DNA of 64,000 nt from an uncultured Pelagibacteraceae bacterium (GCA_902589175.1 CACIRX010000001.1:186938-250937); one strand, 5' to 3'. Counted from the first letter of the stretch, positions 5,180 to 10,219 are shown. Made by a program: numbers and translations. Notes: generated by a model not told the origin, from the letters alone.

Positions 5180-6574
5180 CTATGAAGAAGAAATCATTTT
5201 TGATGGATTGAGAAGAGACTTCATCTTTCTCACATCAATATATTTTAGCATTTTATTTGCCTCAATTAGCGTAATATTTTTCTTATGTGCAAGCTTTGCG
5301 AGTTCTGCAGCTTTTTCGTACCCAATCTCAGGGGCAAGAGCAGTCACGAGCATTAAAGAGTTCTCAACACCTTCTTTTATATTTCTTAAATTCGGTTTAA
5401 TTCCCTTTAGGCACTTATCGCAAAAGTTTGTAATCCCTGAGGATAATAAATTGATTGCATTAATTATGTTAAAACCAATTACTGGTTTAAATGCATTAAG
5501 TTCAAAATGACCTTGAGTTCCTGCCATTGATATTACGTTATGACTACCCATAACCTGTAAACAAGCCATTGTTAAAGCTTCACTTTGAGTTGGATTTACC
5601 TTACCAGGCATTATAGATGACCCGGGTTCATTCTCAGGTAAATTCAGTTCTCCTAGACCTGATCTTGGTCCAGAAGCTAACAGCCTAATGTCATTTGCTA
5701 TTTTGAAAAGATCCGTTGCAATAACATTTAATACTCCCGATAGTTCTACAAGAGAGTCATGAGAGGCCAAGGCTTGGAATTTATTGTTTGCAGGTTTAAA
5801 TTTAATTTTATTAATTTTACTTATTTCATTTGCAACAAGTCTATCGAACCCTTTTTTTGTATTCAGACCTGTTCCAACGGCCGTCCCTCCTTGGGCTAAA
5901 TAATTTAAGTTAATCAGAGCTGTCTTCAGTCGTTTAATGTTCATATCAATCTGAGATTGATAACCTGAAAATTCTTGTCCAAGTGATAAGGGAGTTGCGT
6001 CTTGCAAGTGTGTCCTACCGATTTTGATGATACTTTTCCATTTCTTAGACTGGCTACCTAAAGTTTTTTCCATTTCATTTAAAGCCGGAATAAGTTCATC
6101 TGTAACTTTTTTTGAGGCCGCAATATTAATTGCAGATGGAAAACTGTCATTAGTTGATTGACTTTTGTTGACATGATCATTCGGGTGAACTGGACTATTC
6201 GTTCCAAGTTTTCCGGTAAGTTTTTTATTGGCAAGATTAGCGATGACTTCATTTACATTCATGTTAGTTTGAGTTCCAGATCCAGTCTGCCAAACCGAAA
6301 GAGGGAATTGATCATCATGCTTACCGGTAAGAATATTTTTTGATGCACTAATTATTGCATTTGCTATTTTAGGAGCTAAAGACTTTTGTTTTTGATTTAC
6401 TTTCGCGCAGGCCATTTTTATTGTGACTAGTGCATGTATAATCTCTATAGGCATTAAATTATTGCCAATTTTAAAATTCTTTAATGATCTTTGAGTTTGA
6501 GCTCCCCAAAAATTACTATTTGAAACTTTTATTTTGCCGATACTGTCTTGTTCTTGTCTTGTTTTTTGATTCAT
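5180..6574 (-). CDS. fumC: Class II fumarate hydratase
   Basis: GAQTQRS, QTGSGT, HPNDHVN, GRTHLQDA and the GSSIMPGKVNP signature. Confidence 0.98.
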   Translation of the reverse strand: MNQKTRQEQDSIGKIKVSNSNFWGAQTQRSLKNFKIGNNLMPIEIIHALVTIKMACAKVNQKQKSLAPKIANAIISASKNILTGKHDDQFPLSVWQTGSGTQTNMNVNEVIANLANKKLTGKLGTNSPVHPNDHVNKSQSTNDSFPSAINIAASKKVTDELIPALNEMEKTLGSQSKKWKSIIKIGRTHLQDATPLSLGQEFSGYQSQIDMNIKRLKTALINLNYLAQGGTAVGTGLNTKKGFDRLVANEISKINKIKFKPANNKFQALASHDSLVELSGVLNVIATDLFKIANDIRLLASGPRSGLGELNLPENEPGSSIMPGKVNPTQSEALTMACLQVMGSHNVISMAGTQGHFELNAFKPVIGFNIINAINLLSSGITNFCDKCLKGIKPNLRNIKEGVENSLMLVTALAPEIGYEKAAELAKLAHKKNITLIEANKMLKYIDVRKMKSLLNPSKMISSS

Positions 6575-6646
6575 TTGAATTGTAGTATACTACCTTACGT
6601 ATATATATGGTAACGATTTAAGTTTTTTAAAGGCCGAGTGACGAAA

Positions 6647-6662
6647 AGTGGGAGACTTCTGT
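6647..6662. repeat. Copy 1 of 16-bp direct repeat AGTGGGAGACTTCTGT (tmRNA 3'-end duplicate, att-like)
   Basis: Exact match to 8947-8962. Confidence 0.95.
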
Positions 6663-6819
6663 TTTTCTCACATATTTGAAATATAAGACTATATCTCATT
6701 ATTCAATTCTTCGTTACAGACTTCGTTGCAAGTTTGCGTGATTCAGCACAAACTCTGTTTTCTGACTTCTTTAAAATCTAATTTATAGTATAGTTTTTTT
6801 GTATAAAATTAGTGAATAC

Positions 6820-7779
6820 GTGAAAAAAATTATCTTATCTTTCATATTAATTTTCATCTTTCCATCATATGCACCAGCACTCGATAGTTATGGTATTTAT
6901 GAGGCGCTGAATAAATCAATAGTTAGAATAAACATATGGCAGGATTTTGAGAGTGATAACGCCTATACAATTACTGGGGGGAGTGGGGTCGTTATCAATG
7001 AAAAAAATGGTGTTTATTTTATATTAACTAATGCTCATGTTTTACTGGAAGAATTTTGTTTAGTTAATGAAGACGGTTGTATAGAAAAAATTTGGGGCGA
7101 AGATTTTACAATTGCAATTGATACACCGGATACAGAATTTGAATATCCAGTAAATAATAACGACTTTATGTATTGGTCTGATTATGATTTTGCCGTGATA
7201 AGAGTTGATATGAATAATTATATTATAGAAGATCAATATCATGATTTTAGTCCTATTGCGATTGGTGGCAATTGGCACCCTCTAATGAGTGTGTATGGCG
7301 CTGGTTTTCCATCTATTTTAGGAAATTACGATAAAGATTATGCTGAATTAGTTTTCTGCTCTGGAGTTGTTAATACAATGTTCATGGATGAAGATTCCTT
7401 ATACCAACTTGGTAATTATTCTATCGCGCATAGTTGTACGTTAGCAGGAGGCATGAGTGGTGGACCACTTGTCGATGATGAAGGGTTATTACTTGGAATA
7501 AATGGATTATCTGGAGGAGAAGAACTCTACACTGATGAGCAGGGTAACTTAGTAGATGTTGATATTGCTTCTGCCCGATTTGATTATGCCATGGATATTT
7601 GGGAATTATATCGTCTTGAAATAATTAGTTTTGAGGATGAGGATGGTCACTTTAATCCTGATAGTCCTTTTTACGAGTATTTGCCAAAGTTATCTTATGA
7701 TTACCATGCCGACTTTTATGATAGTTATGTTGAGTTATATCCGGAGGAAATAGATAAAACTAGATTGCTATTTGACTAA
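6820..7779 (+). CDS. Secreted trypsin-like (S1) serine protease, strongly acidic
   Basis: TNAHV (His), DFAVIR (Asp), GGMSGGP (Ser); signal-peptide-like N-terminus from GTG 6820; D/E-rich. Confidence 0.85.
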   Translation: MKKIILSFILIFIFPSYAPALDSYGIYEALNKSIVRINIWQDFESDNAYTITGGSGVVINEKNGVYFILTNAHVLLEEFCLVNEDGCIEKIWGEDFTIAIDTPDTEFEYPVNNNDFMYWSDYDFAVIRVDMNNYIIEDQYHDFSPIAIGGNWHPLMSVYGAGFPSILGNYDKDYAELVFCSGVVNTMFMDEDSLYQLGNYSIAHSCTLAGGMSGGPLVDDEGLLLGINGLSGGEELYTDEQGNLVDVDIASARFDYAMDIWELYRLEIISFEDEDGHFNPDSPFYEYLPKLSYDYHADFYDSYVELYPEEIDKTRLLFD

Positions 7780-7791
7780 ATAAAATAGTGA

Positions 7792-7807
7792 AGTGGGAGA
7801 CTTCTGT
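7792..7807. repeat. Copy 2 of the 16-bp tmRNA-end repeat
   Basis: Exact 16-mer. Similarity to tmRNA extends to 7818 (25/27 identical: ...TTaCCCtGTGTC versus ...TTgCCCgGTGTC). Confidence 0.95.
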
Positions 7808-7827
7808 TACCCTGTGTCCTCTAAAAT

Positions 7828-8061
7828 TTATTTTTCATCTTCTTTTGTTGCCTGTATATATAAATAACCTCCTATTCCGAAAATAATCGGAAAAAAAGGG
7901 ACTGGAAAAAGAATCCAAGATATTATCTCTCCATCAGAAAAAGTTAAGTTTATCCAGTTGTATACATCAGGCAAAATCGGATAATTGCCAAACGTAGTTA
8001 TATAGATAACACCTACAGCTCCTCCTATAAAAATATATAGAATTAGTTTCTTATCAGTCAT
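7828..8061 (-). CDS. Small two-TM membrane protein of unknown function (paralog of 8124-8348)
   Basis: YIFIG..VGVIYI..FGN.P.LP and P.P.FPI.FGIGG.LY are shared with the neighbouring ORF. Confidence 0.8.
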   Translation of the reverse strand: MTDKKLILYIFIGGAVGVIYITTFGNYPILPDVYNWINLTFSDGEIISWILFPVPFFPIIFGIGGYLYIQATKEDEK

Positions 8062-8123
8062 TTTTTATTATTAATATTTGAAAATAGAATTGTTTAGCAA
8101 AGTTTTATCTAAATTTATTATTC

Positions 8124-8348
8124 TTAATCTTCTTTTATAGACTCAAGATATAAAGAACCCCCAATGCCAAAAAATATAGGAAAAGCAGGTATCGGATAAA
8201 GAAGTAATCCCCAAACCTCATTATCCATTGCTTTGTGCAACTCTGGTAATAATGGATCATTTCCGAACAAGTTAATATATATAACACCTACAACAAGTCC
8301 GATAAAAATATAAAACCAACGACGATTATTTAATTGTTTTTTTGTCAT
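8124..8348 (-). CDS. Small two-TM membrane protein of unknown function (paralog of 7828-8061)
   Basis: Same shared motifs; AAGGA SD-like sequence upstream. Confidence 0.8.
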   Translation of the reverse strand: MTKKQLNNRRWFYIFIGLVVGVIYINLFGNDPLLPELHKAMDNEVWGLLLYPIPAFPIFFGIGGSLYLESIKED

Positions 8349-8408
8349 GATCCTTAAATTAATTTATTTTTACTTTAAGTGCACTTTCAAAATTAGTCAT
8401 CTAAATTT

Positions 8409-8424
8409 AGTGGGAGACTTCTGT
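8409..8424. repeat. Copy 3 of the 16-bp tmRNA-end repeat
   Basis: Exact match to 8947-8962. Confidence 0.95.
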
Positions 8425-8573
8425 GCTTCGTCTTATGTCTCCTATGTCTTACTATACATCATATATTAAAAACTTCGTGCAAAACTTCGAGAAGAGAAAT
8501 TAGGGTTTTCAAAGAATTTTGTGATTATTCTTTTTTTATTTCCTCTTTTGTAAAATAGTATAAATTGAAAAAT

Positions 8574-8933
8574 ATGACTTTTGGTGAATCAATATCTACA
8601 TGTTTTAAAAAATACGTTGATTTTAACGGAAGAGCAACTCGATCAGAATTTTGGTTTTTTACTCTATTTTGTTGGATCGTAAGTTTTATTTTGCTGCCTT
8701 TAGATATCGCAATCTTTCCTTACCAGGATTGGGGACCGCTTGGTACGGCATTTTCGCTTGCAATTTTTTTTCCTTCTATTGCTGTTGGATCAAGAAGACT
8801 ACATGACTCAAACTATTCTGGTTGGTTACAACTTTTAGCAATTACCATAATAGGTTTAATTCCTCTTTTAATTTGGTTTATTCAAAAAGGGGATATTGAA
8901 GATAATCGATTTGGTTCTGATCCTCTAAGATAA
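8574..8933 (+). CDS. DUF805 (YhaH-like) inner membrane protein
   Basis: KYVDFNGRATRSEFW, RRLHD.N.SGW, N.FG.DP; ATG at 8574 (alternative TTG at 8565). Confidence 0.92.
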   Translation: MTFGESISTCFKKYVDFNGRATRSEFWFFTLFCWIVSFILLPLDIAIFPYQDWGPLGTAFSLAIFFPSIAVGSRRLHDSNYSGWLQLLAITIIGLIPLLIWFIQKGDIEDNRFGSDPLR

Positions 8934-8946
8934 TTATAGTTTAATT

Positions 8947-9202
8947 AGTGGGAGACTTCTGTTGCCCGGTGTCTCCCGAACCGCGCTTACCTAATTAGAT
9001 TAAGCAGCGAGCGCTAATTCATCGTTAGCATTTATAAAATAGCCCGATAACGGTGGTACAATACCGAGAGAAAAACTTACCTTTAAGCATTCGTCGATCC
9101 TATATCACCCCCCAATTTATGGTGGAGGTGCCGGGTACCGCCCCCGGGTCCGTAATGGGTATTACGCAAGCCGTTTATCCCTATAGCTGGGATATCCCCA
9201 GC
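8947..9202 (-). ncRNA. ssrA: Two-piece (circularly permuted) tmRNA; tag ANDELALAA
   Basis: Acceptor piece ends ...CACCUCCACCA at 9120. Coding piece starts GGGGGUG at 9112 (7-bp acceptor stem with G3.U70). Tag ORF GCT AAC GAT GAA TTA GCG CTC GCT GCT TAA at 9029-9000, preceded by ATAAAT. 3' hairpin GGGAGAC/GTCTCCC contains GGCAACAGAA. Outer ends approximate. Confidence 0.95.
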
Positions 9203-9208
9203 AATCTG

Positions 9209-9237
9209 AATATAGTTGGATATTGAGACTTTTTAAA
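9209..9237 (-). promoter_or_regulatory. Putative sigma70 promoter of ssrA
   Basis: TTTAAA-N17-TATATT on the minus strand directly upstream of the acceptor piece. Confidence 0.55.
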
Positions 9238-9283
9238 GAGAGTAATCTTAATATAGTATGTGTTTATTATTTGATTCAAAAAA

Positions 9284-10219
9284 ATGCCGGTAAACAAAGA
9301 ACAACTTGATGAAATTGAAGCCTTAAGGTCTGAAATATCAGAAACAGCTCGTGTTACAGCCCCTGAGTTAGAAGCAGTTTTGTACAGGCCAATAGAAGTG
9401 CTCGATCATGGCTTTATTCGTGTCATTGATTATATGGGGGATGACAGTTCAATAGTGCAGTCGGCAAGAGTATCATATGGTAAAGGCACAAAGAAGATTT
9501 CAAATGACAAAGGGCTTATTAAATATTTAATGAGGCACCGTCATTCAACCCCTTTTGAAATGTGTGAAATTAAATTTCATATTAAACTTCCAATTTTCAT
9601 TGCTCGACAATGGATACGACACAGAACGGCAAACGTTAATGAGTACTCGGCTCGCTACTCAATTCTTGATAAAGAGTTTTATATTCCATCAGCAGAAAAT
9701 CTGGCAGCACAGTCTGCGATCAATAATCAGGGTAGAGGGGATGCCTTAACAGATGATGAAGCCTCTAATGTTATTCAGATACTAAAAAAGGATGCCGAGC
9801 AGACATATTCTAATTACGAAACTCTATTAAATGAGAGTTCTGAGGGCAACATAATTGATGAAAGTAAATCTGGAATTGCAAGAGAATTGGCCCGAATGAA
9901 TCTTACCCTCAATACCTATACACAATGGTACTGGAAGATTGACCTGAATAATTTATTGCACTTTCTTGCTCTAAGAGCTGACGACCATGCGCAGTATGAA
10001 ATACGTGTTTATGCGGATGCCATGTTAGATATTGTAAAAAAATGGGTTCCTCTTACTTACGAAGCATTTGAAGATTATAGAATTGGTGGGACAGAACTCT
10101 CCGCCAAAGAGGTAAATCTAATGAGAAAACTTCTAAAAGGGGAGAAAGTATCTTTTGAAGAAGAAGGTCTGTCTAAAAGAGAATGGAGCGAACTGCAAAG
10201 AAAGTTTGAAATTAGTTAG
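9284..10219 (+). CDS. thyX: Flavin-dependent thymidylate synthase
   Basis: [14 protein letters not shown] (RHRX7S) motif, HSTPFE, HAQYEIR. Confidence 0.97.

Follow-up and report, generated by a model that had tools for sequence, protein, structure and literature searches.

Introduction

SAR11 genomes are almost devoid of canonical mobile elements, and the origin of their small variable cassettes is described as unresolved (PMC11796062; 10.64898/2026.10.07.757358). Several kinds of genomic island offer parallels. Additive flexible genomic islands have been reported from Alteromonas (PMC4898812), Methylopumilus (PMC10872708), and SAR11 gMED (PMC11796062), and the last of these reports also describes SAR11 islands marked by partial repeats of tRNA genes, as well as a single island linked to a tmRNA gene. 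CIMEs lack an integrase and keep their att sites, piling up in tandem through site-specific accretion—that is, by insertion at the attR beside the target gene (PMC5704250). The ssrA islands of Dehalococcoides are likewise arranged in tandem, with repeats of about 20 bp, and 15 of them have no integration module (PMC3146451). The tDNA islands in Islander restore their target gene, leave a displaced 3' fragment at the far end, and have an att region of roughly 250 bp (PMC4383910). In streamlined marine bacteria, islands at tRNA and tmRNA genes are seeded by tycheposons (10.1101/2020.12.28.424599) and by the marine phage satellites known as VEIMEs (PMC9618062), integrase elements that are both rare and transient; some VEIMEs carry a tyrosine integrase together with a serine recombinase, occur in Pelagibacter, or are integrase-free (PMC9618062).

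In the current work, we describe a locus in a stretch of 64,000 nucleotides (hereafter, the window) from an uncultured Pelagibacteraceae bacterium, in which copies of the end of a permuted tmRNA gene delimit a stack of three small units. The original prediction for this locus likened the stack to an integron. Integrons hold arrays of one- or two-gene units in variable order, with stop codons near the recombination site. As for permuted tmRNA genes of the alphaproteobacteria, the account of tmRNA gene variation by Mao et al. in 2009 reportedly contains few islands.

The tmRNA Locus and Its Three Units

The permuted two-piece tmRNA gene (ssrA) lies on the minus strand at 8947..9241 and encodes a tag read as ANDELALAA. 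The Rfam alpha_tmRNA match runs from 9241 to 8947 and covers model positions 1–355 of 355, with the tRNA-like CCA end at 9120. The final 16 nt of the gene (8947..8962, annotated on the minus strand), which we call the live core, recur exactly and in direct orientation, giving four copies that start at 6647, 7792, 8409, and 8947. Copies 1 (6647..6662, +; a displaced ssrA 3' end) and 3 (8409..8424, +) are exact 16-mers unique to the locus, and copy 2 (7792..7818, +) aligns with the ssrA end over 27 bp with two mismatches. Shuffled sequence yielded 0.37 matches to the 16-mer with up to three mismatches, and at least five matches in none of 100 shuffles. In the 1.12-Mb source assembly (32 contigs, 77.7% complete), the only matches with up to two mismatches were these four copies, all in one orientation, and the inner 11–14-mers of the core were likewise confined to them. 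The core forms the 3' strand of a predicted terminal hairpin in the ssrA coding piece, whose fold (-13 kcal/mol) is no better than that of shuffles (z -1.1); the duplicated part is the end of the coding piece, about 160 bp away from CCA.

The locus is bounded by two conserved anchor genes, the distal fumC (5180..6574, -; Pfam Lyase_1 and FumaraseC_C) and the proximal thyX (9284..10219, +; Pfam Thy1), and a Pelagibacteraceae record carrying the same locus has FumC 81% and ThyX 91% identical to those of the window. Between fumC and the first core lies a native flank of 72 bp (6575..6646), which abuts the ssrA end directly in the empty sites of relatives.

Measured from core to core, the three units are 1145, 617, and 538 bp long. 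Unit 1 opens with the relic of a type-A att arm (6663..6775, +) containing a pair of direct repeats that lie about 47 and 59 bp away from the core, followed by an acidic trypsin-like serine protease (6820..7779, +; PF13365, E 9e-16; D+E 18%) with an N-terminal hydrophobic segment and the His, Asp, and GxSGG motifs, and its stop codon falls 12 bp ahead of core 2. Unit 2 has no arm repeats after its 27-bp core copy, and encodes a 77-aa protein (7828..8061, -) and its 74-aa paralogue (8124..8348, -), which are 49% identical to each other; each ORF translation has two predicted membrane segments and no Pfam match. A protein search linked the 77-aa protein to a single other cluster (67%), and a 46% homologue of the 74-aa protein sits within another cassette (L113). 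A 14-bp AT-rich stretch close to where unit 2 ends also matches a right arm (E 0.002), but this is a hint only. Unit 3 opens with the relic of a type-D arm (8425..8510, +; paired direct repeats at 48 and 60 bp from the core) and carries a DUF805 membrane protein (8574..8933, +; PF05656, E 2e-24), with its stop codon 13 bp short of the ssrA end. When the cassettes of relatives are included, cargo stop codons often lie 3–16 bp from a core. A promoter scan returned 22 sites, compared with 13.7 expected, an uninformative result.

No integrase, transposase, or phage family appeared at E<=1e-5 among the matches listed for the other 56 ORFs of at least 80 aa in the window, four of which had no match. 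Integrase-family and resolvase matches were also absent from the 77.7%-complete assembly; its sole PF00589 match is a 33-aa C-terminal fragment on a different contig, which we take to be Xer-like. The original prediction had read from the sequence the four direct copies and the unit sizes, the position of the 16-mer at the end of the coding piece and not at the CCA end, the protease, small membrane protein pair, and DUF805 cargo, and the lack of integrase, transposase, and phage genes in the window, and all of these were recovered. Two corrections apply: copy 2 continues beyond the exact 16-mer, to 27 bp with two mismatches, and the units do not consist of cargo alone, as two of them begin with an arm relic.

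Metagenome contigs reproduce the array, which is therefore not a single-cell artefact. One contig from run X1, possibly the source sample, covers 6613-8976 with 0 differences; in a 2014 study (X3), the junctions at 7792 and 8409 are bridged by metagenome contigs. Contig depth was about 6–10 over the array and about 50–150 over near-identical flanks, depth not being equivalent to the share of cells.

Variation at the Locus in Relatives

Among 47 genomes of the genus, the core was found in 40, and fumC and ssrA share a contig in 39 of these, with the source genome included and one genome (G008) tallied manually owing to a 1-nt insertion in its ssrA copy. The site is empty in 14 of the 39; nine, including the source, have two or more cores with differing cargo and order, and 16 have an insert with a single core and no distal core. 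In the empty sites, a flank of 71–73 bp is followed by the core in 13 close relatives, and a flank of 77 bp in one more; 13 of the 14 share the source genome's own flank, matching the join of 6646 to 8947 that had been predicted. Extra copies of the 16-mer in relatives are situated at this same locus. The order of cargo is protease, small-protein pair, and DUF805 in the source; thioesterase, DUF805, and protease in G010; and DUF805, protease, and a small lipoprotein-like gene in G015. The whole of unit 1 is 91% identical to a core-to-core unit in G010, where its neighbours differ, and is seen from the core onward in L155; in all, it has three different upstream and three different downstream neighbours. 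In L059 (G013), two successive units each hold a paralogous gene of 436–437 aa that ends 7 bp before the core.

The search of metagenomes gave 94 distinct loci, of which 30 were retained as SAR11-like and 64 were discarded as probable chance matches; because the search pattern was built to leave out plain ssrA, frequencies cannot be drawn from these loci. Across the genus genomes and the 30 metagenome loci, flanks pair at the core in 61 junction types, with a few recurrent sequences found to the right of internal cores. The empty flank adjoins ssrA, arm A, or arm B across the core, for example, and the protease end adjoins ssrA, arm A, or unit 2 of the source genome. One exchange departs from this pattern: L188 has DUF805 DNA that is 99% identical but a different arm in front of it, and the breakpoint lies about 126 bp off the core. 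The expectation that breakpoints coincide with the 16-mer is borne out for the flank junctions but not for this arm switch, and the predicted variability in content and order is evident in the 39 genomes and the metagenome loci, contrary to a fixed array.

The neighbouring family has a different ssrA end, with only the last 6 bp in common with this core. That family's own ssrA end is repeated in the same orientation in 7 of 21 genomes examined (24 were drawn) and on the other strand in none; the copy in G055 was seen only after the region was widened.

Att Arms, Geometry, and Crossover

Four integrase-bearing elements share one layout, with two direct repeats on one side of the core (+49-53 and +60-63 bp) and three on the other (about 53-62, 65-74, and 76-103 bp), while the repeat motif itself varies from element to element. 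Lambda-type integrases bind arm sites flanking their core, and by analogy these repeats may be the arm-binding sites of the integrase. The type-A arm of unit 1 is 84–93% identical to arms of other cassettes, with homology stopping at unit position about 126-133, and has the repeat motif and spacing of the integrase-bearing element G249. The type-D arm of unit 3 is 87–97% identical to arms in L124, L181, and L147, and its spacing is that of integrase-bearing elements. This layout is also found in G036 and G053, which have no integrase, and three integrase-free cassettes of ~1 kb (G036, G063, and L132) combine both arms and the G249 motif with unrelated genes inside. In three of four runs, the arms were covered far more deeply than the G036 cargo.

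Three junctions are informative with respect to the crossover. In L086 (G063; at about 8852 and 11272) and in L170 (at about 404), a type-A arm meets the right arm of another element, which brings its own hairpin and overlaps the core by only 10 bp. Because the last 10 bp of the core are all that the three junctions have in common, the crossover probably falls within 8953-8962. Those 10 bp coincide with the conserved loop motif of the Rfam consensus. A symmetry test picked out no single spacer, with a perfect 7-bp inverted repeat around the core's last 7 bp in L172 only. Some displaced copies reach 27–45 bp into ssrA (L062, L065, L218, and 7792-7818 in the window), which suggests that crossover may also take place at another site, deeper in the terminal hairpin.

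Gene-less units of ~115 bp also occur (L092:12054-12170, in window orientation; L147; and L178) and consist of two arms fused through a common repeat; comparable arm-to-arm joints were seen in runs X3 and X14.

The 16-mer was further found in 12 viral contigs. As candidates for phage attP sites these were rejected, as ten (L072-L074, L076-L079, and L081-L083) are tmRNA-like gene ends and two look like chance; ARAGORN called a permuted tmRNA in five of five viral contigs scanned. Two-piece tmRNAs are known in phages (PMC9004378), and phage tmRNA genes could make the same att site available on a phage genome. Neither relatives of the integrase described below nor type-A arms were found in viral contigs, IMG/VR pattern scans included.

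A Divergent Integrase Family

The original prediction had the units mobilised in trans and proposed a search for a recombinase next to the 16-mer. Supply of an integrase from outside this genome is supported by G022, where a 9865-bp element flanked by two cores encodes a resolvase, a methyltransferase, and a 415-aa ORF. The ORF had no meaningful match in Pfam, PHROG, NCBIfam, or PDB sequences, and was recognised by alignment and fold alone. R245, K278, R355, H356, and Y387 are invariant among 17 homologues, and its structure model (pLDDT 78.6) matched tyrosine recombinases only, among the 34 matches listed, including lambda Int, Tn1549 Int, Xer, and Cre, at modest scores (best E 4e-5, TM 0.24-0.33). 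On its predicted catalytic residues and modelled fold, the ORF is a divergent tyrosine recombinase. Homologues in G249 and L144 gave weak PF00589 matches under the cut-off.

A profile search of the order returned 16 places in 15 of 401 genomes. Full-length homologues lie between two ssrA-end copies in G022, G249 (9413 bp), and G055 (13888 bp), and fragments lie behind ssrA in G240 (0.8 kb from the gene), G353, and G338; sister elements therefore occupy the equivalent ssrA end in the neighbouring family. Of the other ten places, six hold full-length genes elsewhere and four are weak or cut matches. The six (L207-L211 and L213) lack a nearby core, and the surrounding 12–19 kb contains neither a tRNA nor a tmRNA gene. 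The ssrA-linked proteins are 27–38% identical among the pairs listed and do not form one clade; judged by where its genes lie, the family is not ssrA-specific. A class-wide search matched 1 of 401 genomes, without a tmRNA in its 4-kb locus, and only three of those 401 belong to the neighbouring SAR11 family.

In four metagenome contigs (L146, L143, L162, and L172), attP-type junctions link both ends of one integrase-bearing element, as would a circle, a concatemer, or a tandem copy. No integrase matching arms A and D was found in this genus, and the nearest match to that of arm A belongs to the neighbouring family. Of 87 cargo ORFs, not one was homologous to anything in nine integrase-bearing elements or fragments, the four matches obtained being arm sequence; descent of the cargo from these elements is thus unsupported. 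A serine resolvase is common to L057:4671-5390, L144:3981-4700, and the G249 element. A phage polymerase processivity factor (phrog_223) is weakly matched in G022 (E 5e-5), a hint that the integrase-bearing element may be a satellite of large phages, and no conjugation genes were among the families matched in the partner elements. A 2.9-kb contig labelled Bacteriovoracaceae and probably misbinned carries the SAR11-family core, an arm, and an integrase (L094:40-2012).

Proposed Assembly of the Stack

The stack is a population-variable set of small units lying at the 3' end of the permuted tmRNA gene. Most likely it arose through successive insertions driven by an integrase, and deletion then probably locked it in place. 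Recombination would be carried out by a rare element of 9–14 kb, or by a two-armed mini-cassette that borrows the element's enzyme, and would fall in the final 10 bp of the 16-mer, so that the ssrA end is restored and one core copy is displaced. Deletion would then strip the arm nearest ssrA as far as the stop codon of the cargo, often sparing the distal arm; a newcomer would insert at the live core and shove older units toward fumC, where old cores and arms would erode. One-armed units would spread through homologous recombination, or by hitch-hiking with a complete element downstream (cis mobilisation), and not alone. With just the two-repeat arm left in units 1 and 3, and no arm in unit 2, the three look like locked relics of serial insertion. 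The serial site-specific insertion at the coding-piece 3' end that had been proposed gains support from the junction types, the core-bounded elements, and the empty sites in relatives. As counterpoints, the evidence for recombination is wholly comparative, the cargo has no counterpart in the nine integrase-bearing sequences, the integrase family is not specific to ssrA, erosion of the distal core is assumed for the 16 single-core inserts, arms A and D are without a matching integrase in the genus, and the DUF805 arm switch took place away from the core.

The original prediction also took the three units to be intact cassettes mobile in trans in the manner of an integron. For this to hold, a core and one arm would have to suffice for excision and re-insertion by a visiting integrase. 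The varied neighbourhoods of unit 1, the differing protease and DUF805 order, and the very regular abutment of cargo and core speak for this idea, and the recurrence of unit 1 from core to core fits free cassettes as well as hitch-hiking or homologous exchange. We nevertheless judge it unlikely: the proximal arm repeats missing from units 1-3 are present in all four integrase-bearing elements checked, and neither a circle junction joining the end of any of the three units back to its own start (four runs) nor a junction between right and left arms that are both of type A (13 type-A junctions and four runs) was seen, although these negatives are weak, as contigs drop rare forms. Two-armed integrase-free cassettes do occur in relatives, so trans mobility remains plausible for the system as a whole. 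It is conceivable, if doubtful, that SAR11 has a satellite-powered system in which such mini-cassettes (with one or two host-like genes) and the 115-bp gene-less units are moved in trans by divergent integrases targeting the loop motif of the coding-piece hairpin, with the stacks as its archive.

A different reading regards the cores as old scars, with the integrases now inactive and current variation arising only by homologous replacement between fumC and ssrA. It would account for the inserts that have no second core beside them, for the scarcity of intact integrase-bearing elements (1 of 46 genus genomes), and for the near-identical recurrence of the three-unit array in samples from 2014 and 2021; moreover, in another SAR11 lineage, variable regions are not enriched at tRNA or tmRNA genes (10.64898/2026.10.07.757358). 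Internal cores are mostly exact 16-mers, however, and arms remain 84–97% alike despite different cargo. Homologous replacement alone makes no new core-arm junctions, yet a wide range of them is seen, and end-to-end junctions of integrase-bearing elements exist; we hold this reading to be improbable. The incomplete, fragmented assembly and the position of the core as half of a hairpin might raise the suspicion that the 16-mer is a terminator or some generic repeat, or that the array is an assembly artefact. The confinement of the 16-mer to four like-oriented copies at the locus, the placement of relatives' extra copies at that same locus, and the metagenome contigs refute this suspicion and leave it a negligible chance. 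Insertion at the live core followed by locking remains our preferred explanation.

Significance and Comparison with Known Systems

The locus identifies where insertion is targeted, how the att sites are laid out, and which integrase family, missed by standard annotation, goes with them, and the question of where SAR11 cassettes come from thereby becomes directly testable. For permuted tmRNA genes it points to a likely further subsite of integration, one lying outside the tRNA-like domain, and it suggests a route by which streamlined bacteria swap genes for predicted surface proteins; together with the two-armed mini-cassettes, the site and its annotation-invisible integrases make this a concrete, testable route of gene exchange in SAR11. 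Because SAR11 variable regions show no overall tie to tRNA or tmRNA genes in a preprint of 2026 (10.64898/2026.10.07.757358), the route is a local one and not an explanation of the whole pangenome. The coding-piece-hairpin subsite and this integrase family were not described in the literature searched, although supplements (PMC11796062, Fig. S2; PMC9618062; PMC4383910) could already show the site; the available text of the tmRNA database paper and of the Sinorhizobium paper does not mention the subsite, and the word "tmRNA" is absent from the 135-genome Pelagibacter preprint.

The partner elements resemble tycheposons or VEIMEs, but their integrases fall below Pfam, NCBIfam, and PHROG thresholds. 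With Islander islands the locus shares restoration of the target, a displaced 3' fragment, and an att region of roughly 250 bp (PMC4383910). The subsites that the available Islander text lists are the anticodon loop, the T loop, and the T/acceptor junction, whereas the site here is the end of the coding piece; an internal integrase, absent from the units and the 77.7%-complete assembly, is present in G022, G249, and G055. Because Islander rejects islands that are under 2 kb or lack an integrase, the units described here would be missed (PMC4383910).

Integrons resemble this locus in their arrays of small units, their stop codons close to the recombination site, and their variable order, but the likeness is one of analogy only. 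There is no integron integrase (IntI) or attI beside the array, and no attC-type hairpin: when 56-nt stretches spanning the internal copies were folded, on one strand and in one window each, they did no better than shuffles (z -0.2 to -1.8). The sites themselves duplicate the end of a host gene and have lambda-type arm repeats.

As an array, the stack is an unremarkable island, of a kind known from additive islands, CIME accretion, and the Dehalococcoides ssrA islands. Additive islands likewise vary in cassette number and order at a tRNA or tmRNA gene with repeats of the gene end, and here a fixed tmRNA locus carries strain-variable cassettes with gene-end direct repeats between them. For SAR11, the available text on such islands gives no att arms, crossover site, or cognate integrase, and its tmRNA-linked island is missing from those listed with a partial repeat (PMC11796062). 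CIMEs by definition keep attL and attR and ride conjugative elements (PMC5704250); units 1-3 similarly lack integration and transfer genes, but have cores on both sides without proximal arm repeats, both arms being retained in G036 and other relatives. The Dehalococcoides islands depend on the serine recombinase DsiB, a T-loop crossover, and a one-piece tmRNA (PMC3146451), in contrast to the tyrosine recombinase and the site about 160 bp from the tRNA-like end found here. The stack behaves like an additive island grown by CIME-type accretion, and comes closest to the ssrA islands of Dehalococcoides.
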